DNA of 21,145 nucleotides, taken from NCBI GenBank assembly GCA_043732185.1, contig JAYTHY010000122.1, positions 1 through 21,145 of the forward strand, given 5' to 3'. Positions 1 through 12,949 of the stretch are shown piece by piece. Position 1 is the stretch's first letter, and each line of letters starts with the position of its first letter. The DNA comes from Fibrobacteria bacterium (GTDB taxonomy: Bacteria; Fibrobacterota; Fibrobacteria; UBA11236). The notes under the pieces were generated by a model that saw only the letters and a list, made by a program, of their open reading frames with translations, did no database searches and had not been told where the DNA came from. The translations under genes were made by a program, and so were the position numbers.

Positions 1-575
1 GCATTCAAGTAGTCGTAATAGGCTAGGAAGAATCCTCCCGTCCCGCAAGCCGGATCCGCCATGGTCTTGCCCGGCTTGGGTTGCAGGCATTCCACCATCA
101 CTCGGATCAGGGCGCGCGGTGTGAAATACTGCCCAGCCCCGCTCTTGGTATCCTCTGCGTTCTTCTCCAGCAGGCCTTCGTAAATATCGCCCTTTACATC
201 CGTTCCCAACATCACCCAGTTTTCCTGATTGATCAGGTCCACCAGCTTGTAAAGCTTGGCCGGATCCTGGATACGGTTTTGGGCCTTGAAAAAGATTTGC
301 CCTAGCATGCCTTTGGCTACACCTAACTTTTGGAGCACCTCAATATAATGTGCTTCCAACTCCGCGCCGGATTTCCCCTTCAGGCTGGGCCAAGCATACT
401 TCTTGGGGATTTCGGTATCTCGATTATAGGGCGGTTTGGAATATTCATCAGCCATTTTTAAAAACAGCAGATAGGTCAACTGCTCCACGTAATCGCCATA
501 GCTCACGCCATCATCCCGCAGGATATGACAAAAGTTCCAGACTTTAGCGACGATAGCGGCGGTAGATTCGGTCAT
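1..575 (-). CDS. hsdM: Type I restriction-modification methyltransferase subunit M, N-terminal part (runs off window start)
   Basis: Manual translation from ATG at 575: MTESTAAIVAKVWNFCHILRDDGVSYGDYVEQLTYLLFLKMADE...GDIYEGLLEKNAEDTKSGAGQYFTPRALI...DPACGTGGFF. Shows the HsdM N-terminal domain, the GQYFTP motif and SAM-binding motif I. Not in the ORF track because there is no stop in the window. Confidence 0.97.
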   Translation of the reverse strand, partial: MTESTAAIVAKVWNFCHILRDDGVSYGDYVEQLTYLLFLKMADEYSKPPYNRDTEIPKKYAWPSLKGKSGAELEAHYIEVLQKLGVAKGMLGQIFFKAQNRIQDPAKLYKLVDLINQENWVMLGTDVKGDIYEGLLEKNAEDTKSGAGQYFTPRALIRVMVECLQPKPGKTMADPACGTGGFFLAYYDYLN

Positions 576-577
576 GT

Positions 578-1594
578 TCAGTTTTTCCGGTTGATGAGAT
601 TGATGATGACTTTGACAATCAAGTCTTTTTCCTGCGCTTTGCTTTCGGCAACCATGAGGCATAGGGCGACCAAGGCATTGTCGGCAATCCGTTTGGTGCC
701 ATCGGCGCGATAAAGGGCGCGGTGGCGACTCAGGAACCACACGAATAAGAAGGCGGCGATGCGCTTATTGCCATCCACAAAGGAGTGGTTTTTGACTGTG
801 AAATACAAGAGGTTGGCAGCCTTTTCCTCGATGGACGGATACAGCTCATTGCCTCCGAAGGTCTGATAGATTGTGGCAATGGTGCTCTGGAAGGAAGCGT
901 CCTTTTCCCGGCCAAACAAGGCGCTGGATTGGTATTGAATCCCGAGTTCCGTGATCGCTTCCATCGCCTCTTTGTAGCTGATGGGTTTGGCCTTCCTACG
1001 GGTAGTGCCGGTTATTTCCAGGCTGGCATGGTCGTAGCCATCCAACACCTCTAAGGCATGGGCGAAATCATGGATGACGTCGATGACGCTGCCGACTTCT
1101 TCCGACGTAAGTGCGTTTGCATGGGTAGCCCGTTGCAAGAGTGCTACGGCGGATTTCAGCTCCTCGAATCGGTTTTGATTCTGCTCGATTACCTTTTTGT
1201 TCAGGGAAAATCCCTTCACCAAATGCTCTTTCAGGACTCCCGAAGCCCAGATACGGAACTGTGTTCCTTTCTTCGAATTTACCCGATATCCCACAGAAAT
1301 GATGGCGTCTAGGTTGTAGTATTCAATCTGCCGGTTGACGACCTTTGCCCCTTCTTTTTGAACTGTTGCAAAAAATGCAACAGTTTGATTTCTGGCCAAC
1401 TCCTTTGATTTGAATATATTTAGCAGGTGCCGACTCACAACGGACTTGTCTCGCTCAAATATTTCGGCAATCTGATTCAGAGAAAGCCAAAGCGTATCCC
1501 CATGCAGAGTTAACCTGACTTGGGGCGCTCCTTTGGTGGGTTGATAGATGACTGCATCCCCTCCGGGCAATGCCAAATTTTTCTTTGCTTTCAT
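578..1594 (-). CDS. RhuM-family DNA-binding domain fused to Fic/Doc domain
   Basis: RhuM signature (LWLSLNQIAEIF...YYNLDAIISVGYRVNSKKGTQFRIWA) plus C-terminal Fic/Doc motif HSFVDGNKRIA; stop lies 2 nt before the hsdM start. Confidence 0.92.
   Translation of the reverse strand: MKAKKNLALPGGDAVIYQPTKGAPQVRLTLHGDTLWLSLNQIAEIFERDKSVVSRHLLNIFKSKELARNQTVAFFATVQKEGAKVVNRQIEYYNLDAIISVGYRVNSKKGTQFRIWASGVLKEHLVKGFSLNKKVIEQNQNRFEELKSAVALLQRATHANALTSEEVGSVIDVIHDFAHALEVLDGYDHASLEITGTTRRKAKPISYKEAMEAITELGIQYQSSALFGREKDASFQSTIATIYQTFGGNELYPSIEEKAANLLYFTVKNHSFVDGNKRIAAFLFVWFLSRHRALYRADGTKRIADNALVALCLMVAESKAQEKDLIVKVIINLINRKN
1361..1385. repeat. Perfect inverted repeat (10-bp arms, 5-bp A spacer) inside the rhuM coding sequence
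   Basis: AACTGTTGCA-AAAAA-TGCAACAGTT; encodes TVAFFATV on the minus strand. Confidence 0.9.
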
Positions 1595-1623
1595 GCTCGG
1601 TCCAATTCCAATTCAGGTTAATT

Positions 1624-1650
1624 CAGTTGCGGCAAAAAATGCCGTAACTG
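1624..1650. repeat. Near-perfect inverted repeat (11-bp arms, 5-bp A spacer) upstream of rhuM; candidate operator or recombination site
   Basis: CAGTTGCGGCA-AAAAA-TGCCGTAACTG (one mismatch); shares the core GCAAAAAATGC with the repeat at 1361-1385. Confidence 0.8.
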
Positions 1651-1652
1651 GT

Positions 1653-1670
1653 GGGGGAAAGCTTTCCCCC
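1653..1670. repeat. Perfect 18-bp palindrome just downstream of the hsdS stop
   Basis: GGGGGAAAGCTTTCCCCC equals its own reverse complement; no U-tract follows on the minus strand. Confidence 0.8.
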
Positions 1671-1675
1671 TGGCC

Positions 1676-3328
1676 TCAGCCGCGCCTCTTGGCGGCGGTC
1701 ACTTTTCCCCCCTGCTGTCTTCCCCGGCGCGGCTTCGGCGCACCCCCTTCAACGGGGGTTCCAGGCCTTGCGGCAACGCTTCTCGTTTCCGAAGGGCTTC
1801 CACCCCCGTAACGCCCCCGCTCCTCTGTTGTCTGCCACTTCTTCGGGGCCTCGTCGCTGTCCGCGCGGTCCGCGCGGATCCGTTCCAGGAGTTTTTCGGC
1901 AGGCTCGTCGTTCGGGTCCTGGGGAACGAGTTTGCCTTCGAAGGCTTGCTTCAGGATGCTTTGGCGCAGGGATTCGGATTGGGCGAGGGCGGCGTCGAGG
2001 GTCTTGTCGAGGTTGTCGACTTCGGAAATAAAGTAATCGATTTCCTTAACGACTTCCATTTGTTCTTTTTCAGAGCAGATGGGAACAATAATATTCACCA
2101 TTCTTGTTAGGCCCAAATCTTGATTTCCTACACCATGGGTAAATTTTTGAGCTTGTAAGTAGCAGAGCTCCGAGTTCAGAGCATGTTGGAGATAAAATGG
2201 ATTTATCCCAATCACTGGTTTAAGGACCGCGACATGAACCCACACGCTAAATTCGACATCATAGGTATTTACTCGAGCTATCCCGGTTGTTCCACCCTTT
2301 GTGTATAGAACATCCCATTTTTCGGCATGGCATTTTTTCTTGAACTCCTCATGAAGTTCGCGGCTAACATATTTTGAGGAACTGAAGTCGATTCCGGCCG
2401 GTCGGATATTTCCTCCTGAAATAAAGGGAATTCCTTCGGCTGAATATTTAGGGCTAAAATGTGGCCCATCTTTTACCGACCAGACCATATCACCCAATGG
2501 CATTGATGCCCAGCCCATAGGAACTTTATGTGCCCTTGATAATTCACTTTCAATTCCTGATTGGGTAACCATTGGAACTTTTGGCGCCCTTTCACCTCGA
2601 CTCTTAGCTCTATTGGCCTCTTCGTCTAATTTCGATTGCCGACACGCTTGAATGTAGGACTTAAGTTCCGAAGAGGTCGGAATGGAATTATTTTCCCGCC
2701 ATTCTTTTGTAAGAACTCCTTCGAGACCCGCTTGAAATACGGATTTTCGATAGACCTTCAACTGCTCCTTGGCCTTTTTCAGCGAGGCGATACCGGCATC
2801 CAAATCGGAAAAAAGCTCTTCGATTTTGGCGACGATGCGGTGCTGTTCGGCAAGAGGGGGGAGGGGGAATGGGTAACCGTTTAGAGTCGATGGTTTTACC
2901 CTCATAAGAGACCCGCCAACCCCGGAAACATTTTGCGACAAAAAATCACGGAACTGCTTTTTCGAGAGAAAATACTGGAGAAATACTGGAACCATTTCAT
3001 TAGAAGGGAAAAATGGAATCCATTCGGTCGATGCAATTTTTGAATGAATGCTGTGGTTACCTACGACCCAGACCCTGTTGATATGGGGATTTATTTTACA
3101 AAGAAGAACTGTAGAGGGCTCGACTCGGAATTTATTTGAACCAATTTCCGCCCCATTTTTAATATCCGGTTGCAAAAACTCATGTGATGGGACACTGTAC
3201 AATTCAAATGTCTCATGCTCAAATTTCGAAGGGTCAATTCCTTGTTTTGAATCAAATCTAACGTGATCAAGCGTTGTCATAGCCCAGCCTAAAGGAGTCG
3301 TTTTAGCAGTAGGATTCTCCGGTTTCAT
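1676..3328 (-). CDS. hsdS: Type I restriction-modification specificity subunit S (two TRDs, extended basic C-terminal tail)
   Basis: Two TRDs, each beginning near a P-x-GW motif; conserved PLPPLAEQHRIVAKIEELFSDLDAG spacer helix; C-terminal LRQSILKQAFEGKLVPQDPNDEPAEKLLERI; located within the hsd locus. Confidence 0.95.
   Translation of the reverse strand: MKPENPTAKTTPLGWAMTTLDHVRFDSKQGIDPSKFEHETFELYSVPSHEFLQPDIKNGAEIGSNKFRVEPSTVLLCKINPHINRVWVVGNHSIHSKIASTEWIPFFPSNEMVPVFLQYFLSKKQFRDFLSQNVSGVGGSLMRVKPSTLNGYPFPLPPLAEQHRIVAKIEELFSDLDAGIASLKKAKEQLKVYRKSVFQAGLEGVLTKEWRENNSIPTSSELKSYIQACRQSKLDEEANRAKSRGERAPKVPMVTQSGIESELSRAHKVPMGWASMPLGDMVWSVKDGPHFSPKYSAEGIPFISGGNIRPAGIDFSSSKYVSRELHEEFKKKCHAEKWDVLYTKGGTTGIARVNTYDVEFSVWVHVAVLKPVIGINPFYLQHALNSELCYLQAQKFTHGVGNQDLGLTRMVNIIVPICSEKEQMEVVKEIDYFISEVDNLDKTLDAALAQSESLRQSILKQAFEGKLVPQDPNDEPAEKLLERIRADRADSDEAPKKWQTTEERGRYGGGSPSETRSVAARPGTPVEGGAPKPRRGRQQGGKVTAAKRRG
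1742..1809. repeat. GC-rich imperfect long hairpin (REP/MITE-like palindromic element) within the hsdS 3' tail
   Basis: ACGGGGGT (1752-1759) pairs with ACCCCCGT (1802-1809), enclosing GCCTTGCGG/CCGAAGGGC and AACG/CGTT stems; an alternative stem is ACCCCC (1742-1747) with GGGGGT (1754-1759). Confidence 0.5.
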
Positions 3329-4107
3329 TCGAGTTTCATTTCTGGCATTTCATCCCATGTTTTCCCATTGTACATTCTCCCCGACTTTTTCTTTCCAACT
3401 TTGACGCCATCTTCATTGAACGCGCCCCACTGCTTGAAAAAGAAGGCCACATCTGAATCCACACAGGCACGGTGAATGCTCTCGATCCACTCGGGTTTCA
3501 TGACTCTAGCGCGGTGCCCACTTTCTCCCCCTACGATGGCCCATGAGATGCCATTCAACTCGCCCCGTGCAAAATCGATCTCGCCGAGCAAGGGTTCAAA
3601 AGAAATGAACCTAATTGGAGCGGGAGTTTCTCGGAGTAGCGAAATTCGATTTTTATATATGGAAGATTCCACACTTACGCCCAACCAAATATGACTCGGA
3701 AACGTTGGTTTACTTTGGTCTCGGGAGTCCATAGAGGAGAATCGTTTGTTGACCCACTCCACCATTCTTTTTGGTCTTTTGGTAAGTACCTGATAAATGT
3801 GGTGGTCGGCCTGGATCATTGAGTCGAAAATCTTTTCAATAAATGAATCAGGAATTGTTTCCAGAAATAAATCGGACATGGAATTCACGAAAATAATCTT
3901 TGGCTTTTTCCATGAAGCCGGAATGCTCAGTTTTGCCGGCCATAGGGTCATGTCAAAGCCATTTTCAAAAGGATGGTCCTTGACGCCGCGGAATCGCTCC
4001 GCGAAAGTTTCTGCATAACAATTTTTACAGCCGGGGCTCACTTTTTTGCAGCCGGTAACCGGATTCCACGTGGCGTCAGTCCATTCGATTTTTGATCCTA
4101 GGCTCAT
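3325..4107 (-). CDS. DUF5131 / phage Gp37-Gp68 family protein (three-Cys, radical-SAM-like)
   Basis: SKIEWTDATWNPVTGCKKVSPGCKNCYA (Cx6Cx2C), IFVNSMSDLF, LTKRP, WLGVSVE, FISFEPLLG, IVGGESG and FFFKQWG are hallmark motifs; stop overlaps the hsdS start (ATGA). Confidence 0.93.
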   Translation of the reverse strand: MSLGSKIEWTDATWNPVTGCKKVSPGCKNCYAETFAERFRGVKDHPFENGFDMTLWPAKLSIPASWKKPKIIFVNSMSDLFLETIPDSFIEKIFDSMIQADHHIYQVLTKRPKRMVEWVNKRFSSMDSRDQSKPTFPSHIWLGVSVESSIYKNRISLLRETPAPIRFISFEPLLGEIDFARGELNGISWAIVGGESGHRARVMKPEWIESIHRACVDSDVAFFFKQWGAFNEDGVKVGKKKSGRMYNGKTWDEMPEMKLE

Positions 4108-4108
4108 T

Positions 4109-4966
4109 TTATAATCCCTCCAGAAAAGAGATTTGGGGGTTCGTGCCCTTCATGGCTTTTTTCCAAAAGTCGAGGCCGCGCGGGTGCTTTGTGAAGAACG
4201 CTAAATGGTAAAGCAGCTTCTGCGTACCAGTGACATGGACCGGCTTGAGGAACTGACGGCTATCCTGGTAACCGAGTTGCACCATACGATTGCAAAACTG
4301 TTCAACCACGAAGTCGGCGTTTTTGCGGCCCAACTTTTGGAATGTATCCCATTTTTGGCGCCAATCTGTGTCACCTAGGAACCGGTCCAGGGTTACATTG
4401 TCTTCATCTGAGTAGTAGGCGATATTCCTGCCGATATCCATGCCGGAAGGGATTAAAACCATAAAGTCCATTCGCTTAGTCCCCAGCTGTTCAATAATTT
4501 CGAACGAGAAGTTGCTGGTATTGAAGGGGTCGATGACGCAAAAGCAAAGGACCTTGAATCCGGGTTTGTGCTGAGGAATCGCCTGCAATATTTCATTGCA
4601 TGATGTCCGGGCATCTCCTTGGATGAAAATGGCATTAGCATTAGGAAACCGATTCGCAGCGCGAGTCTTTAAGGCTTCAAGCTTTTTAGGATTCAAATCG
4701 CAGAAAATATAGGATCCAAAGGGGGGATCGGTTTTTAGCGCCAACAATGCCGAAGTATCCACGCACTCTCCGGTTACCCGGATTTTTGCCCGTCCCGAAC
4801 CGGCGTACAAATCGACATAGGCCAAATGTTGCCAGAGGTTTTTCATACCCCCCGAAACAATCTTAGCGTAATAGGTAATTAGGGCATATTTTGTGGCCGA
4901 CCATGATCCGATCCATGGCGCGATGAGGCCATCGGAGTCCAGTGAATTTTCGTCTTTTCTCGGCAT
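4109..4966 (-). CDS. tcmP: Three-Cys-motif partner protein (TcmP-like, SAM-dependent methyltransferase fold)
   Basis: N-terminal GSWSATK, SAM-binding-like YVDLYAGSG, IDPF motif, C-terminal LYHLAFFTKHPRG; 1 nt upstream of the DUF5131 gene, its usual partner. Confidence 0.85.
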   Translation of the reverse strand: MPRKDENSLDSDGLIAPWIGSWSATKYALITYYAKIVSGGMKNLWQHLAYVDLYAGSGRAKIRVTGECVDTSALLALKTDPPFGSYIFCDLNPKKLEALKTRAANRFPNANAIFIQGDARTSCNEILQAIPQHKPGFKVLCFCVIDPFNTSNFSFEIIEQLGTKRMDFMVLIPSGMDIGRNIAYYSDEDNVTLDRFLGDTDWRQKWDTFQKLGRKNADFVVEQFCNRMVQLGYQDSRQFLKPVHVTGTQKLLYHLAFFTKHPRGLDFWKKAMKGTNPQISFLEGL

Positions 4967-5025
4967 GTTCGTGGTACTCTAAATTAATTCAACTGCTGGG
5001 TCAGAAAGTGTCCCCGAACACTTGT

Positions 5026-6183
5026 TCATTTCTTCCCGTCTTCAATCATTACGAACTCGTGGAAGTTTTCCGGTGTGATGACTTTGAATGCGCTGTCCGG
5101 GTAGGCGTCGAGGAACGGTTTAGGGTTTTTGGTCTTGGCTTTCGGGTTCCATTTGAATTCGTAAGCGTGCAGCCTGCCGTCGTATTCTTCGATGTAGTCG
5201 ATTTCTTTTTGGGTGTGCGTGCGCCAGAAGTACGGATTCACGTACTTTTCATGGTAGGCCAGTGTTTTCATGCGTTCCACGATGCAGAAATTCTCCCAAA
5301 GGCCGCCGGTATCGGCCCGTAGCGAGATGGGGATGAAATTCTGTATCAGGGAGTTGCGTATTCCCAGATCGTAGAAATAGATCTTGCGGCTGCGCTTGAT
5401 TTCGTTACGCATGTTACGGCTCAACGAGTGGAGTCGAAAAATCACAAACGCCTTCTCAAGCAGGTCGATGTAGCGTTCCACGGTTTCGGGATCGCTATTG
5501 ATGAGTTGCCCCACCTCGGGATAGGTGACTTCGTTACCCACCTGCAAGGCCAAGGCTCGCAAAAGCTTTTCGACCAATGCGGGTTTGCGAATCTGCTGAT
5601 AGGCCAAGATATCTTTGTACAGGGAGCCCTCGCACAGGTTGGCCAGCACCTTCTGCTCCATTCCTGGACCAGTGACCACTTGCGGGTAATAGCCATACTG
5701 CATGCGAATCGGCAGGAATTTCTTTTCCTCAAGGAATCCGGTATGCGCGACCATTTCTTCGAATGAGAGTGGATAGATGGATAGATTCCAGGCTCGGCCG
5801 GTCATGGATTCGTAGAGGCCGTGGGCCAGTTCCAGAGCGGAAGATCCGGTAACCAGGATTTGAATTTCCGGGTATTTGTCTACCAGCATTTTGACTACGA
5901 GACCGATGCTTTCGATCCTTTGCGCTTCATCGATGACGATCGTCGTTGCGCCGCCCAGCCCGTGCTTCAGGTTTTCCGGGTTGAGGATGGAAAGGAGTTC
6001 CCGGTCCGCGCCTATTTCGCCATTAATCCATTTGACATCGGGTCGAGTGGGGTTGAAAAGTTTTTGCATCAGGGTGGTTTTTCCCACCTGTCGTGGTCCC
6101 AAGACCACGATGGCCCGTCTTTTCTCGGGCGTAAATTCACCCAAATAGCCTTGAACCAGACTTTCTATTCGGCGGGGAATCAT
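5026..6183 (-). CDS. AAA+ ATPase (AAA_14) with DUF4143 domain and C-terminal PD-(D/E)XK-like region
   Basis: Walker A GPRQVGKT, Walker B IVIDEAQ, TGSS, KIYFYDLGIRN, GGLWEN, and FWRT..QKEIDYIEE...AYEFK. Confidence 0.92.
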   Translation of the reverse strand: MIPRRIESLVQGYLGEFTPEKRRAIVVLGPRQVGKTTLMQKLFNPTRPDVKWINGEIGADRELLSILNPENLKHGLGGATTIVIDEAQRIESIGLVVKMLVDKYPEIQILVTGSSALELAHGLYESMTGRAWNLSIYPLSFEEMVAHTGFLEEKKFLPIRMQYGYYPQVVTGPGMEQKVLANLCEGSLYKDILAYQQIRKPALVEKLLRALALQVGNEVTYPEVGQLINSDPETVERYIDLLEKAFVIFRLHSLSRNMRNEIKRSRKIYFYDLGIRNSLIQNFIPISLRADTGGLWENFCIVERMKTLAYHEKYVNPYFWRTHTQKEIDYIEEYDGRLHAYEFKWNPKAKTKNPKPFLDAYPDSAFKVITPENFHEFVMIEDGKK

Positions 6184-6283
6184 GGCCTAATTATAGTAAA
6201 AATCTATATTTATATCTTTTAAATATCATAAATTATAAAAATATAATCGTATAAATATCATTAAATATACGATTATGATGAAA
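6184..6283 (-). promoter_or_regulatory. AT-rich internal promoter region for the ATPase: TATAAT -10 box 6 nt from the ATG, with an 11-bp inverted repeat
   Basis: TATAAT on the minus strand at 6190-6195 with no SD before the ATG at 6183; perfect IR ATAATCGTATA (6243-6253) / TATACGATTAT (6266-6276); direct repeat TAAATATCAT at 6220 and 6252. Confidence 0.6.
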
Positions 6284-9046
6284 TTAGGCTAAAAGACGAT
6301 TATTTAGATCATCCAGCAGGGGGTCCAAATCCTCCAAAAAAAGCTGACAGGCCTTGCCCAACCCGCCCTTTTCCACAAAGGGGCTGAAATCAAAGTCGTC
6401 GCGGCCCATGTGCATGGAGGTGGCGATATGGTCCTTGATGAAGCGGAGCCATTCCATTTGTTCTTCCGTGAACTTAGGAGCGTTGCCTTTGTGCCGATCC
6501 ATCGTCCAGGCCATAAAATTGCGATTGACCATAGCGTCGAAGGGCGTCAAGGTGGCGTCGATATCAAGGACCCTACGTAAAAGGGAGACCAGGGCCACTA
6601 GCTCATTCTCCGGACGCTGTCCGGCCACTTGCTCCAGCCGTTCGTATGCCTGCCATACGGTGAAGGGCGCGAGGCGTGGTCGTTCCTGGCGGATGGTATC
6701 ACAGAGGTCACGGATCATTTGGTAGGTCAGTTCTCGGCGGCGGTGGGGTTCAGCGTAAAGGATGCCTAGGGCAGTGATCGTATCTCGATGAGCGGCGATA
6801 TAGGTTTTGAAGTCCTGGATCAGAGCCGTCGCCTGCTCCCGAGCCTTGGCATCAAACCCGGCGAACAATACAGTGTCGATATTGATCTTGTCGATCACTT
6901 GTTCGTGCGAGCGCCTGGCATTGTCGATAAATTGGCGTAGGTCGGCATTGTCGAAGACCTTGCAGGCTTCCTGGGACATTTCCGAGTGCGCGGCGATCAA
7001 CTGTTCGCCGGTGGGCAGTTGATTTTCCGTCAATTGAAAGCGTTTACGGGCTTCGTCCACCTGCCTGTCGGGGTTATGCGCGTCGAACAAGGCATGGATG
7101 ACGTCTGGCAAAGTTTTACCCGAGGTTTGTTTCTTGAACGCTGTCCGCTCCTTTTCATCCAGTTGCAGATTCAGTCGCGCTAGGCGATTGGCCAGAGAAG
7201 TCATGGTATCCTCGTCCCGGCTGCCCATCACCACGTTAAGCATCAAATCCTTGAGAGGTACATCGCGCTTGCGCTCCAATGGACGGCTGTCGGTCTTGAC
7301 CGATTTGCACACCCCAACAGCATCGACAATGACGAAGTGAGTCTTATCGGTAGTGGCGCTGGGCGAAACCTTACGCAAATTTTCCAAGTCCTGGATGCGA
7401 GTGCCACGGCCCTTCATCTGTTCAAAGTAATTGCGAGACTTCACGTCCCGCATGAATAGCAACACCTCCAGGGGCCGCACGTCGGTACCAGTCGCGATCA
7501 TGTCCACAGTCACGGCCACACGGGGATAGAACTCGTTCCGGAAGGATTGCAAAACCGTTTTGGGATCGTCTTCATTGCTTGGGTTGCAAGTGACTTTCTT
7601 GCAGAACTCGTTGCCCTCTCCGAATTCCTCGCGCACAATCTGGATAATGTCGTCGGCATGGCTGTCCGTCTTGGCGAAAATCAGAGTCTTGGGCACTTCC
7701 TTACGGTCCGGAAAGATTTCCTGCTGCAGGCGCTCCTTGAGGGTTCGGACGATGTTGCGGATCTGGCTGGGATTGACCACGTCCCGATCCAATTGGGTGC
7801 TGGTGTAGGCCATCTCCTCATCGAGTTGCGCCCAGCGGTTACGGCGTGTCTGACGGCTGCGGTGGTCGACAAACTCTTTGGCCGCAATGCGGCTGCCGCG
7901 CTGCGTGATTTCGGTTTCGATGGTGTACACATCGTATGGAACATTGACGCCATCAGCCACCGCGTCCTCGTGGGAATATTCCGAGACTACATTCTCGTTG
8001 AAGAAGCCGAAGGTACGGGCATCCGGCGTCGCGGTAAGTCCGATCAAGAAGGCGTCGAAATAGTCGAGTACTTGTTTCCAGAGGTTGTAAATGGAGCGGT
8101 GGCATTCATCCACGATCACGATATCGAAGTACTCGGGCGGGTACTTGGCGTTGTAGGCGACGTCACGGGGCTTATCTGATTGGACCTTGGTTTCAAAGAG
8201 GGATTCCTGCTCGGCGCTTTCATCTAGGGCTTCGCCTTTGAGAATCGAATACATGCGTTGGATGGTGCTGATACAAACTTGATTGGATCCACCGATGGTG
8301 CTGGAAGCCAAACGTTGCACGGAATACAGCTCCGTGAACTTGCGGTTGTCGTCGTTGGGTTTGAACATCTGGAACTCCTGTTCCGTCTGTTCACCAAGAT
8401 TTTTGGTGTCGACCAGGAACAGGATGCGTTTGGCCTTGGCGTGCTTGAGCAGGCGATAGACAGATGTGATGGCAGTGAAGGTCTTGCCGCTGCCGGTTGC
8501 CATTTGCACCAGGGCTTTTGGGCGATTGTGGGCCAAGGATTCTTCCAGGCGAGTGATGGCGTTGATCTGACAGGCCCGCAGTCCGACAGGGTCCAGGGCA
8601 GGCATGCCTTTGAGCCGCTTGCGGAAGGTGTCCGGAAGTTCTAGGCGAGACTTAAGCGTCTCGGGCCGGGGAAAAGAGAATATGCCCCGGGCGCGGGGCT
8701 TGGGGTCACGGTTATCCGTATAGCGAGTTTCCACACCGGTGCTTTCGAACACAAAAGGAAGAACGCCATTCTTGACCGTGTATTTCAAGGCGCTGGTTGC
8801 GTAGCGACCGGCTTGAGCCTCGACGGCGGAAAGGGCCACACCTTCTTTTTTGGCTTCAATGATACCAATGGGAACGCGGTCTAGAACCAGAGCGTAATCA
8901 GCGGGACCGGTGTCTGTAGGGTACTCCCGAATGGCAATGCCCGGGGAAGCACCAGGATTGAGGCCCTTCATATCCTGGATAACCCATCCGGCGGCTTCCA
9001 GCATGCGGTCGATGTTCTGGCGAGCCAGTTGTTCGGGAGTTGTCAT
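6284..9046 (-). CDS. hsdR: Type I restriction endonuclease subunit R (EcoEI-type C-terminal domain)
   Basis: Nuclease motif GPADY...IIEAK, helicase motifs QMATGSGKT, DECHR, GLTATP, VDMIATGTD and QMKGRGTR; C-terminal FTEEQMEWLRFIKDHIA...PFVEKGGLGK. Confidence 0.96.
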   Translation of the reverse strand: MTTPEQLARQNIDRMLEAAGWVIQDMKGLNPGASPGIAIREYPTDTGPADYALVLDRVPIGIIEAKKEGVALSAVEAQAGRYATSALKYTVKNGVLPFVFESTGVETRYTDNRDPKPRARGIFSFPRPETLKSRLELPDTFRKRLKGMPALDPVGLRACQINAITRLEESLAHNRPKALVQMATGSGKTFTAITSVYRLLKHAKAKRILFLVDTKNLGEQTEQEFQMFKPNDDNRKFTELYSVQRLASSTIGGSNQVCISTIQRMYSILKGEALDESAEQESLFETKVQSDKPRDVAYNAKYPPEYFDIVIVDECHRSIYNLWKQVLDYFDAFLIGLTATPDARTFGFFNENVVSEYSHEDAVADGVNVPYDVYTIETEITQRGSRIAAKEFVDHRSRQTRRNRWAQLDEEMAYTSTQLDRDVVNPSQIRNIVRTLKERLQQEIFPDRKEVPKTLIFAKTDSHADDIIQIVREEFGEGNEFCKKVTCNPSNEDDPKTVLQSFRNEFYPRVAVTVDMIATGTDVRPLEVLLFMRDVKSRNYFEQMKGRGTRIQDLENLRKVSPSATTDKTHFVIVDAVGVCKSVKTDSRPLERKRDVPLKDLMLNVVMGSRDEDTMTSLANRLARLNLQLDEKERTAFKKQTSGKTLPDVIHALFDAHNPDRQVDEARKRFQLTENQLPTGEQLIAAHSEMSQEACKVFDNADLRQFIDNARRSHEQVIDKINIDTVLFAGFDAKAREQATALIQDFKTYIAAHRDTITALGILYAEPHRRRELTYQMIRDLCDTIRQERPRLAPFTVWQAYERLEQVAGQRPENELVALVSLLRRVLDIDATLTPFDAMVNRNFMAWTMDRHKGNAPKFTEEQMEWLRFIKDHIATSMHMGRDDFDFSPFVEKGGLGKACQLFLEDLDPLLDDLNNRLLA

Positions 9047-10538: not shown

Positions 10539-11696
10539 ATGACTATTCCATGCCTTGTCGGCGATTTCCACATAGTGCGCCCTAAATACACCGCCGATCA
10601 CCAGTCTTCGGTAAAGTGGTTGGCTGCCGTCCACGCCAGTTCGGAAGCCAATGTACGCGGAGAAGGCTTCGACGAAGGCGCATTTCGGCGTTCCATGGAA
10701 AGGCATATTACACGTTTCGGTTGCGGGCCGGAAAGCTTGGCCTTCCGCGGTTTCGAACTGGAGGATTTTCTGCACCAGGATTGGGAAAGGATGCGCATCT
10801 TCAATACTGCTAAGCATCCACATGGAGCGGGTATGACCGAACGCATGGAAGTGTTCGCGGAAATCGCGGACAGTAAGCTGGAAGCTTTTTATCCCACGGA
10901 TTTGGTTTCGCCGCCGGAAGAAATTATTCATGTTTCATGCACCGGGTACGTGGCCCCTAGCGCCGTGCAGAAGTTGGTGGTCAAGCGAGGTTGGCAGCAG
11001 CACGTGGGTGTAATCCATGCCTATCATATGGGCTGCTATGCCTCTATGCCTGCCTTGCGTATGGCTTCGGCCTTCATCGCTTCGCCAAGGGTGACGGCTG
11101 CCTCTGGTCGACGCATCGATATTGTACACACGGAGCAATGCAGCCTGCACTTGGATCCCGGCCGACATGTTCCTGAGCAATTGGTTGTGCAAAGTCTTTT
11201 TTCGGACGGGCATATCCGGTACAGCGTTTCGCCGGATGAAGGAGGTAGCGGCCTGCGTCTCTTGGGCTTGAACGAAGAAATCATCCCTGATTCATCCGGC
11301 GCTATAGGTTGGGTATTGGGCGATCATGGCATGAGGATGATGTTGTCGCGCGATGTACCCGATCTTATTGCGGCGAACCTGAAGGATTTTCTCAAACGCC
11401 TTTTCGCCAATGTGGGCGTGGATGGGACAGAAGCCTTGTCCAAGGGACTGTTCGCCATCCATCCCGGTGGGCCGCGCATCATCGACAAGGTTGCACAGAT
11501 TTTGGATTTACAACCCTGGCAGGTTGCGGAAAGTCGTGCGGTCCTGAAAGCTTTTGGAAACATGTCTTCCGCTACGCTGCCACATGTTTGGGCCAATCTA
11601 CTGGCGGACCGTAAAGTGGAATCGGGTACTTTGATCCCGAGCTTGGCTTTTGGCCCAGGCCTCACCGTATTCGGTGCCGTGTTCAGAAAAATCTGA
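10539..11696 (+). CDS. Type III polyketide synthase (chalcone-synthase-like)
   Basis: Intact Cys-His-Asn triad (HMGCYA, AIHPGG, GNMSS), HVSCTG, SLFSDG and AFGPGLT; GGAGG RBS upstream. Confidence 0.93.
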   Translation: MTIPCLVGDFHIVRPKYTADHQSSVKWLAAVHASSEANVRGEGFDEGAFRRSMERHITRFGCGPESLAFRGFELEDFLHQDWERMRIFNTAKHPHGAGMTERMEVFAEIADSKLEAFYPTDLVSPPEEIIHVSCTGYVAPSAVQKLVVKRGWQQHVGVIHAYHMGCYASMPALRMASAFIASPRVTAASGRRIDIVHTEQCSLHLDPGRHVPEQLVVQSLFSDGHIRYSVSPDEGGSGLRLLGLNEEIIPDSSGAIGWVLGDHGMRMMLSRDVPDLIAANLKDFLKRLFANVGVDGTEALSKGLFAIHPGGPRIIDKVAQILDLQPWQVAESRAVLKAFGNMSSATLPHVWANLLADRKVESGTLIPSLAFGPGLTVFGAVFRKI

Positions 11697-11699
11697 TCG

Positions 11700-12176
11700 A
11701 TGTGGTGGTTAGCCCCCATTCCCTTTTTACTGCATGCGCTGGGGATGCTTGTGGACGAGGTTTGGTTCCATCGTCGTCGCGGCTTGCCGGCTTGGGAACG
11801 ATGGGGGCACCCCCTAGACACATGCACCGTGCTTGTCTGCTATGGCCTATTGGTAAGCCTTCCACCCACCCGCAACGTCCTCTGGGTTTACGTTATCGCC
11901 GCCATCTTTTCCAGTTTGTTCATCACCAAGGACGAGTGGATCCACGCCCGTTACTGCCAAGGCGGGGAGTTATGGCTGCACGCTGTGCTCTTCATCGCTC
12001 ATCCCGTCCTCCTGGGCATCGCCGGCATCTGGCGGTTCGTCCCCTTGGCGACTCCGGATCCCGGTCACGTTTTCTTCTCACTTTTTTTCCATGGCCAAAC
12101 TGTCCTCACCGCGGTCTTCTTATTTTATCAACTGTTATATTGGAACGGACCATGGAAACCGACCGAAAAAATTTGA
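11700..12176 (+). CDS. Small integral membrane protein with two D-E-x2-3-H-x7-8-E-x3-H motifs
   Basis: Several hydrophobic segments; DEVWFH..ERWGH and DEWIH..ELWLH; ATG 3 nt after the PKS stop and overlapping the next gene. Confidence 0.8.
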   Translation: MWWLAPIPFLLHALGMLVDEVWFHRRRGLPAWERWGHPLDTCTVLVCYGLLVSLPPTRNVLWVYVIAAIFSSLFITKDEWIHARYCQGGELWLHAVLFIAHPVLLGIAGIWRFVPLATPDPGHVFFSLFFHGQTVLTAVFLFYQLLYWNGPWKPTEKI

Positions 12177-12949
12177 ATCATTCACCAGCCACGGGCCTTA
12201 GCGATCGAGCCACCATCAACAATGGTTTTTACGACGAGTTGGGCGAGCGATGGTATTTAGCCGAGGATAATCCTGTAGCCCTATTGCGGGCAGAAGGCGA
12301 GCTTAAACATCCTTGGGTCATACAGCGTATTAATGAATCGCTAGAGGGGCGCACAGGCCGTATACTGGATATCGGTTGCGGTGCTGGCTTCTTGGTGAAC
12401 CAACTGGGCGTACAAGGCCATCAGTCCATCGGCGTGGATATGTCGCGTGGCAGTCTTAAGGTGGCTAGGGCTAGGGCTTGTGCTGGATCGGGACGTGCGG
12501 CGTATCAAATGGCTGATGCTTATCACCTTCCATTTCGGGAGGCTGTTTTTGATGCCGTGGTTGCCCTCGATTTTCTAGAGCATGTTACAACACCACAACG
12601 GGTGGTCGAGGAAGCGGCGCGTGTCCTCCGACCAGGTGGGCTGTTCTTCTTTCACACCTTTAACCGTAATCTCCTGGCCTGGCTTATCGTCATCAAGGGT
12701 CTGGAATGGTTTGTCATGAATACGCCCAAACACATGCACGTGCTGTCGCTTTTCATCAAGCCTGAAGAATTGCGCGAATATTGCCACAACAGCGGTATGC
12801 AAGTCCTGGAGATGACCGGCATACGCCCAGAAATTGGACGCAGTGCCTTTTGGAAAATGATCGCCACGCATCGAGTACCAGCAGATTTCAAATTCAGATT
12901 CACCCCTTCGCTGGCGATTTCCTACCTGGGATGCGCCCGCAAGGGTTAA
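12152..12949 (+). CDS. UbiG-like SAM-dependent O-methyltransferase
   Basis: ILDIGCGAGFL (motif I), FDAVVALDFLEHV, RVLRPGGLFFFHTFNRN and FIKPEEL resemble UbiG; likely start is the ATG at 12152 (METDRK), not the GTG at 11702. Confidence 0.87.
   Translation: METDRKNLNHSPATGLSDRATINNGFYDELGERWYLAEDNPVALLRAEGELKHPWVIQRINESLEGRTGRILDIGCGAGFLVNQLGVQGHQSIGVDMSRGSLKVARARACAGSGRAAYQMADAYHLPFREAVFDAVVALDFLEHVTTPQRVVEEAARVLRPGGLFFFHTFNRNLLAWLIVIKGLEWFVMNTPKHMHVLSLFIKPEELREYCHNSGMQVLEMTGIRPEIGRSAFWKMIATHRVPADFKFRFTPSLAISYLGCARKG

Follow-up and report, generated by a model that had tools for sequence, protein, structure and literature searches.

A TcmP-DUF5131 gene pair with a beta-clamp-type motif, very probably mobile cargo, in a type I restriction-modification operon of a Fibrobacteria bacterium

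We analyzed a 21,145-nt stretch of DNA from a Fibrobacteria bacterium (contig JAYTHY010000122.1, assembly GCA_043732185.1), hereafter the window, in which two adjacent genes, one for a TcmP-like methyltransferase and one for a DUF5131 protein, lie within a type I restriction-modification (R-M) operon. All coordinates are positions in this stretch. Based on Pfam profiles and the list of open reading frames, the gene order on the minus strand is hsdR, AAA_14-DUF4143, tcmP, DUF5131, hsdS, RhuM-Fic and hsdM, and the features are as follows:

4966-4109, minus strand: tcmP, 285 aa, a short form without the winged helix-turn-helix (wHTH) domain and with a predicted class I S-adenosylmethionine (SAM)-methyltransferase fold (Trm1/RlmJ-like)
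4112..4135, minus strand: C-terminal beta-clamp-binding-like motif of TcmP, Q278-I-S-F-L (homolog alignment and DnaN prediction)
4107-3325, minus strand: DUF5131 (Gp37/Gp68), 260 aa, a CX6CX2C radical-SAM-type enzyme (PF07505, 322.8 bits)
3328-1676, minus strand: hsdS, type I specificity subunit (PF01420, two stretches)
6183-5026, minus strand: AAA_14-DUF4143 ATPase (PADLOC PDC-S01), a mobile cargo gene of its own, upstream of tcmP (Pfam, PADLOC and DNA comparison)
9046-6284, minus strand: hsdR, EcoEI_R_C-type restriction subunit, 920 aa (Pfam; 69% identical to the HsdR of genome G041)
1594-578, minus strand: RhuM-Fic (PADLOC PDC-S23), cargo between hsdS and hsdM (Pfam and PADLOC)
3..572, minus strand: 5′ part of hsdM, truncated where the contig ends (Pfam)

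An earlier note on this DNA had reported that tcmP ends one nucleotide before DUF5131 and that the DUF5131 stop codon overlaps the hsdS start, and both junctions are as it described: a single nucleotide (4108) separates the end of tcmP (4109) from the DUF5131 ATG (4107), and the DUF5131 TGA (3327-3325) overlaps the hsdS ATG (3328-3326) in the sequence ATGA. Its placement of the pair between hsdR and hsdS holds on the hsdS side, which the pair abuts, but not directly on the other, as the AAA_14-DUF4143 gene intervenes after hsdR. Both tcmP and DUF5131 are single-copy in the host genome. A 298-bp contig of a second study (X3, record 13) is identical to 3976-4273, with zero differences, and because it spans the tcmP/DUF5131 junction we conclude that this junction is not an assembly artefact; among the contigs of other studies there was no credible junction deleting tcmP-DUF5131. 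Contig C108 opens with the C-terminal part of an HsdM that is 51% identical to residues 196-494 of the HsdM of G007, a genome of the same genus, and since this part complements the hsdM cut at the contig end, the R-M system is probably complete.

The profile searches that the earlier note had proposed placed both proteins above the curated cut-offs, with TcmP scoring 137.7 bits against TIGR04474 (cut-off 53) and DUF5131 scoring 322.8 bits against PF07505 (cut-off 28.9). The CX6CX2C motif that it had named for DUF5131 proteins is present as C20-x6-C27-x2-C30 and is invariant in all 42 aligned homologs, as in the description of the family as Megacluster-5-2 of RadicalSAM.org (PMC9477430), in which DUF5131 shares one megacluster with spore photoproduct lyase (5-3). 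TcmP has motif I, DLYAGSG, at residues 52-58 and D146-P147 at the motif IV position, and is distinguished within its family as a member of a short clade whose proteins have a clamp-type motif at the C-terminus and lack a wHTH domain, PF22560 having no match in the 285-aa protein. Other assignments were not obtained: the match to TIGR04471 (Radical SAM mobile pair protein A) reached 68 bits, under its cut-off of 355, PF04378 (RlmJ family) had no match in TcmP at E-values up to 0.1, sequence searches of the PDB with the pair proteins returned no matches, and no sequence match between DUF5131 and spore photoproduct lyase was found in Pfam or the PDB.

Both proteins are matched by models of anti-phage candidates (PDCs) in PADLOC. 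PDC-M41A matches TcmP at an E-value of 7.9e-20 with partial cover (residues 18-198), and DUF5131 is matched by PDC-M41B (4.1e-97) and PDC-M30B (1e-96 or better), while the long PDC-M30A models of 368-381 positions match TcmP more weakly (5.7e-6 and 0.007). The genes matched by the A and B models of PDC-M41 are adjacent at the locus, as assessed apart from PADLOC's own score and coverage rules, and the neighboring cargo genes are also matched by PDC models, AAA_14-DUF4143 by PDC-S01 and RhuM-Fic by PDC-S23. Payne et al. (bioRxiv 10.1101/2024.01.29.577857) took genes that lie within BREX, DISARM and type I R-M systems and derived from them 145 untested PDCs, the embedded genes being oriented like the host system in 96.7% of cases; their main text does not mention M41 or M30 by name. 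Judged by these matches, the locus is a further embedded copy of the catalogued but uncharacterized candidate PDC-M41/M30, sharing its A and B models, its adjacent genes and one of its defining settings, and differing in nothing of substance, the short TcmP fitting M41A better than the longer M30A. The idea of such a pair inside a type I R-M operon is therefore not new, as this embedding is among the settings by which PDCs are defined. In our literature search, brief mentions placed TcmP next to the defence gene Hna and in prophages of Sinorhizobium (PMC12445080, PMC12429752), and neither a functional study of the TcmP/DUF5131 pair nor a report of a TcmP clamp motif was found, in agreement with the statement of the earlier note that the pair has no established function. 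The family matters as a very common radical-SAM cluster to which the papers found assign no function.

The locus itself is ordinary, and the useful lead that it provides is the tail of TcmP and not the embedding. In an alignment of 38 of 41 TcmP homologs (three partial ones were excluded and motifs were counted by hand), Q278 is near-invariant and 36 sequences have a clamp-type C-terminal motif, in the form Q-x-x-[LFM]-[LFM] in 22 and Q-x-x-[LF]-x-[LFW] in 14. Beta-clamp-binding motifs include a hexamer form beside the pentamer, and at the sequence level the TcmP tails match both. The same motif occurs in all 12 further TcmPs of this clade, one having I as the last residue; these comprise 11 full-length GTDB matches with E-values under 1e-45, from loci that had been picked by DUF5131, and the homolog of G107. 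As a control, 2/80 DUF5131 C-termini fit the motif (last 12 residues, counted by hand). At the level of sequence and prediction, TcmP resembles beta-clamp clients in having a motif of their pattern, short and placed at the terminus or in a loop. The homolog of G107 has QLNLFE at its end, where clamp clients have the consensus QLDLF or the Qx[D/E][L/M]F of the Mor/MuC family (bioRxiv 10.1101/2025.01.04.631326; the clamp pocket is described in PMC11253446), whereas the QISFL of the window is off-consensus. In the other short clade of TcmPs the tail is absent, and 17 of 20 proteins bear [LM][FL] in an inserted loop that is absent from the clade of the window; among the three loop-less members, one ends in Q-x-x-M-x-L. 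A motif that seems to shift its place between clades in this way would be behaving as expected of a docking peptide.

Structural prediction is consistent with this. The tail is unstructured in the monomer model (pLDDT under 50 at 279-285), so that the model places the conserved clamp-binding-type motif in an exposed, flexible segment. When residues 251-285 of TcmP were predicted together with the DnaN of the host, the score was 0.54 versus 0.00 for the best control, with runs sharing at least 80% of contacts and a partner pLDDT of 49-50. In the benchmark, 116 of 157 solved complexes passed the mark, as did 2 of 215 mismatched pairs, but only 18 of the 157 solved complexes, and both of the mismatches, passed it with a score of 0.60 or under; we take the docking prediction as weak support. 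Considering alignment and prediction together, we find it fairly probable that TcmP binds the beta clamp. The motif directs the search for a substrate to replicating or damaged DNA.

The pair is very probably mobile cargo that is independent of this hsd operon, and neither an Hsd subunit nor an obligate accessory, because it is absent from the G007 operon, belongs to a distant lineage in G041 and stands beside an unrelated HsdR in G102. In G007 the order is hsdR-hsdS-YhcG-hsdM and hsdR overlaps hsdS by GTGA in the absence of the pair, so the 4-nt overlap of the window is an ordinary junction before hsdS. In G041 the gene for an HsdR that is 69% identical to that of the window comes first, then tcmP, DUF5131, a gene of unknown kind and a short hsdS, and it is the non-hsd gene that the DUF5131 stop overlaps by 4 nt; the TcmP there is of another clade and only 26% identical to that of the window (176 aligned columns), and the DUF5131 is 46% identical. 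In G102 the pair is located between hsdS and an HsdR of an unrelated family (1041 aa). PF07505 is also patchily distributed: 49 of 296 phylum genomes have it, as do 2 of the 14 other genomes of the genus.

Some features of these operons were recorded in passing. The R-S-cargo-M order with hsdM last (1-9046) is common to the window and G007, in which the cargo before hsdM is YhcG/DUF1016 instead of RhuM-Fic. The HsdS of the window has a C-terminal extension of ~50 aa that is of low complexity and GC-rich (1676-1830), and a basic tail about as long is present in the HsdS of G007. The hsdS of G041 encodes only 228 aa with one recognition domain, and by eye a small HTH-like reading frame runs from the hsdR stop, before tcmP (L169:50-736 and 3130-3374).

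For the survey of gene neighborhoods the query was DUF5131, because scans of genome and metagenome contigs with the TcmP protein alone gave no relatives and the TcmP alignment contained no sufficiently conserved stretch. DUF5131 has at least 8000 homologs. The wide survey covered the best 80 of 592 confirmed GTDB loci (603 stretches scanned), many with short flanks, and the phylum survey the strongest 38 of 64 other match rows. With a profile built from one clade, a TcmP match was found in 64 of the 80 wide-survey loci, and in 2/80 the two proteins form a DUF5131-TcmP fusion in a single frame; in the phylum TcmP was confirmed at 9/38 loci, 8 of these above the cut-off. The two fusions, of 534 aa (L044:9971-11575) and 634 aa (L080:1161-3065), are from metagenome-assembled genomes of Caldilineales and Latescibacterota and are either true fusions or lost stops. 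Another large protein, of 1134 aa, in G052 (L173:2764-6168) contains DUF5131 at 597-844 and DUF488-N3a at 1010-1063, the remainder having no Pfam match, and in L162, too, a DUF488 gene comes before tcmP. In phage records DUF5131 was found in 180 and the less sensitive TcmP query matched 2. Synechococcus phage Ssp-JY39 (L182:2680-4298) has a TcmP homolog whose end is overlapped by a convergent 248-aa gene that is possibly DUF5131.

Matches to HsdM, HsdS or HsdR profiles were present in 5 of the 80 wide-survey loci (L033, L050, L058, L072 and L075; type I or ISP R-M), none of the 80 had the pair between detected hsd genes, and there was no hsd match in the 13 loci of the closest TcmP clade (12 from GTDB and that of G107). 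In the phylum, 9/38 loci had an hsd match within ~9.5 kb, the pair being embedded in two and directly upstream of hsdM in one. These counts are lower bounds, since the HsdR profile missed the 1041-aa HsdR of G102. With a background of ~3-4%, estimated by hand from six HsdM-like sites of the host, the counts suggest that proximity to hsd genes in the phylum is above background, in an informal comparison among kin that are not independent. The pair favors R-M hotspots without needing them. The functional coupling to this R-M system that the earlier note proposed is not supported, given the G007 operon without the pair, the distant lineage in G041 and the 0/13 of the closest clade. The neighborhood enrichment for which it proposed a survey is suggested by the phylum counts, and the more general link to defence loci stands, given the PDC-M41/M30 match and the hsd genes near 9/38 phylum loci. 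In G123 (L147:13873-19500) a 508-aa reverse transcriptase, possibly of a retron or other defence system, lies between type I hsdM and hsdR, 3 kb from tcmP-DUF5131.

The predicted folds bear out the description of the pair in the earlier note as a SAM-methyltransferase with a radical-SAM-type enzyme. For the TcmP model (pLDDT 92), Foldseek ranked the RlmJ homolog LPL1258, Trm1 and RlmJ first, VIA gave Trm1 (Z 15.0, rmsd 4.0, 221 aligned) and RlmJ (Z 14.0, rmsd 4.1, 217 aligned), and the ESM Atlas returned TcmP clusters and RlmJ at 0.84, the latter as a lead only. K26, G56/G58 and D146-P147 are invariant across the TcmP clades, and longer TcmPs add a wHTH domain (PF22560 in G014). RlmJ (23S rRNA m6A2030) and Trm1 (tRNA G26) are thus the closest folds, and DLYAG is motif I-like; TcmP differs from them by an identity of 10-13%, the lack of a PF04378 match, D-P-F in place of DPPY, its radical-SAM partner and its clamp-type tail. 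The DUF5131 model is poorer (pLDDT 78, with a poor N-terminus) and had no Foldseek match at E-values up to 0.001. In VIA its best matches were spore photoproduct lyase (Z 10.3, rmsd 3.8, 196 aligned) and viperin (Z 10.1, rmsd 3.4, 184 aligned), which are tied, and the best 21 rows were radical-SAM enzymes as judged by their titles and our recall. On this model DUF5131 has the partial TIM-barrel fold of radical-SAM enzymes, and it differs from the two tied enzymes (10-12% identity) in its smaller size and CX6CX2C spacing.

We also looked for signs of regulation. Upstream of the host recA is TGCAC-N4-GAGCA, which we take to be the LexA box (the Fibrobacter LexA site); boxes of this type have 14 matches in the genome versus 5 for the reversed control, and the host lexA has half-sites only. 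Together with a Fib_succ_major gene in a genome of the same class, the box points to Fibrobacterota as the probable phylum of the host. Such a box marks the start of the pair in two of the 38 phylum loci, both from the family of the host: in G014 it precedes tcmP by 37 bp, and in G024 it covers the start of DUF5131. The other 36 have none at that position. The box of G107, 356 bp before tcmP, falls within the gene upstream and was left out of the count. The Fibrobacter LexA was characterized previously (PMC3091678). A different palindrome, GAAC-N4-GTTC, at 5016-5027 (across the AAA stop and 50 bp upstream of tcmP) was rejected as a host operator: it has 45 genome sites, none of them at lexA or recA, 7 of 100 shuffles gave two in the window, and its first half is within the AAA stop region that is common to G014. 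It resembles the Gram-positive LexA box, and it is probably a matter of chance or a relic of the donor. The pattern TGCAC-N5-TGACA was uninformative, and a sigma-70 scan found 7 sites versus 9.0 expected and so gives no sign of a promoter. Transcription of the pair probably comes by read-through, either from the hsdR operon or from the AT-rich stretch ahead of the AAA gene.

The interpretation that we favor, and to which we give an even chance, is that TcmP and DUF5131 are a clamp-tethered pair of enzymes acting on DNA, which travel as a mobile module in the cargo slot of R-M operons and are used against mobile DNA. TcmP and DUF5131 would act as one complex, which we regard as quite probable given the fusions, and DNA would be their substrate, for which the balance is somewhat favorable. 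The hints of nucleic acid are the Trm1/RlmJ folds, the wHTH of long TcmPs and the recA-type operators in G014 and G024. The QxxFL tail would dock TcmP on the beta sliding clamp and so place it at DNA under replication or repair, where it would bind SAM and a base and either methylate an exocyclic amine or present the base. DUF5131, holding a 4Fe-4S cluster by its CX6CX2C motif, would cleave SAM and alter that base by a radical mechanism, leaving in DNA a mark or lesion for use in conflict with phages and mobile elements. The chemistry involved is a guess, and for a defence role of the pair we see the chances as evenly divided. If true, the result would be a radical modification of DNA that follows replication and is tethered to the clamp, something new both to radical-SAM chemistry and to R-M biology. 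A bolder version, which we put forward only tentatively and consider doubtful, is that of a widespread replisome-riding enzyme, in which clamp-docked TcmP hands newly replicated or damaged bases to a minimal radical-SAM enzyme to give an undescribed anti-phage base modification, and in which the motif has switched between a C-terminal and an internal-loop position.

Several results weigh against the interpretation of a clamp-tethered, DNA-acting pair. The DnaN pass is weak and may reflect memory of solved clamp-peptide structures, and Q is kept in only 5/20 of the internal-loop motifs. The nearest folds of TcmP, Trm1 and RlmJ, act on RNA, and many other methyltransferases are matched at Z 12-13.6, many small-molecule ones being within 2 Z of the top. 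The DPPY or DPP[YF] motif is motif IV of RlmJ-type adenine methylases, and TcmP carries D146-P147-F148 (D-P-[FY] in the family) without the second proline, making methyl transfer likely, not certain, on the model. Viperin, an enzyme of nucleotides, ties with spore photoproduct lyase in the DUF5131 fold search, and the 180 phage records versus 2 for the less sensitive TcmP query indicate that DUF5131 may act alone. Finally, the recA-type box TGCAC-N4-GNGCA is absent from the window even when 1 mismatch is allowed, and hsd matches were found at only 5 of the 80 wide-survey loci.

It is feasible that the pair belongs instead to SOS-type repair or tolerance of damage, with DUF5131 reversing or processing a base lesion radically, TcmP finding lesions while bound to the clamp and the R-M location being an insertion hotspot. 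Clamp motifs are typical of repair proteins, and a host-type recA box stands at the pair start in 2/38 phylum loci. The top fold of DUF5131 is spore photoproduct lyase (Z 10.3), a member of the same megacluster (PMC9477430), but viperin ties with it. The window has no recA-type box even at 1 mismatch, 36/38 phylum loci have none at the pair start, and the patchy spread and closeness to hsd genes (9/38) suit conflict genes better, so we consider repair unlikely. The same tie with viperin (Z 10.1) is the starting point for a viperin-like or small-molecule role, in which DUF5131 would convert a nucleotide or cofactor and TcmP would methylate it to give an antiviral or signaling product, or in which TcmP would methylate RNA, as its nearest folds being RNA methyltransferases could suggest. 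This leaves the clamp-type motif, the wHTH of the long form and the recA-type operators unexplained, and we consider it quite unlikely.

The model of the earlier note, a type I accessory whose role would be to hypermodify the mark set by HsdM or to guard HsdRMS against phage inhibitors, draws on the shared strand and the translational coupling to hsdS, and on the position of the pair in three of the 38 phylum loci, between hsd genes in two and immediately before hsdM in one. We consider it very unlikely, as four-base overlaps at such junctions also occur without the pair, the pair is missing from the G007 operon and of another lineage in G041, and it lies between detected hsd genes in 0/80 wide-survey and 0/13 closest-clade loci.

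The AAA_14-DUF4143 gene upstream of tcmP has a distribution of its own. DNA copies of 77-91% identity are present in G002, G004 and G014, in which the gene and a 3′ remnant of hsdR are kept without the rest of the R-M operon (5020-6300; L023, L026, L178 and L179), and the likeness at the DNA level stops at ~5020-5025, just before tcmP. The host genome has a second, partial copy, 90% identical, on contig C101, and the DNA downstream of it is near-identical to that of G002. The AT-rich gap between hsdR and AAA_14-DUF4143 contains a perfect 10-bp inverted repeat with a 14-bp spacer (6243-6276), for which the shuffle test is not independent as the pattern was taken from the sequence; a degenerate copy precedes the G002 ortholog, and the repeat is possibly an autoregulatory operator. 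Elsewhere in the window, at 10539-12949, a type III polyketide synthase-like gene, a gene for a small membrane protein and a UbiG-like methyltransferase gene stand in series.

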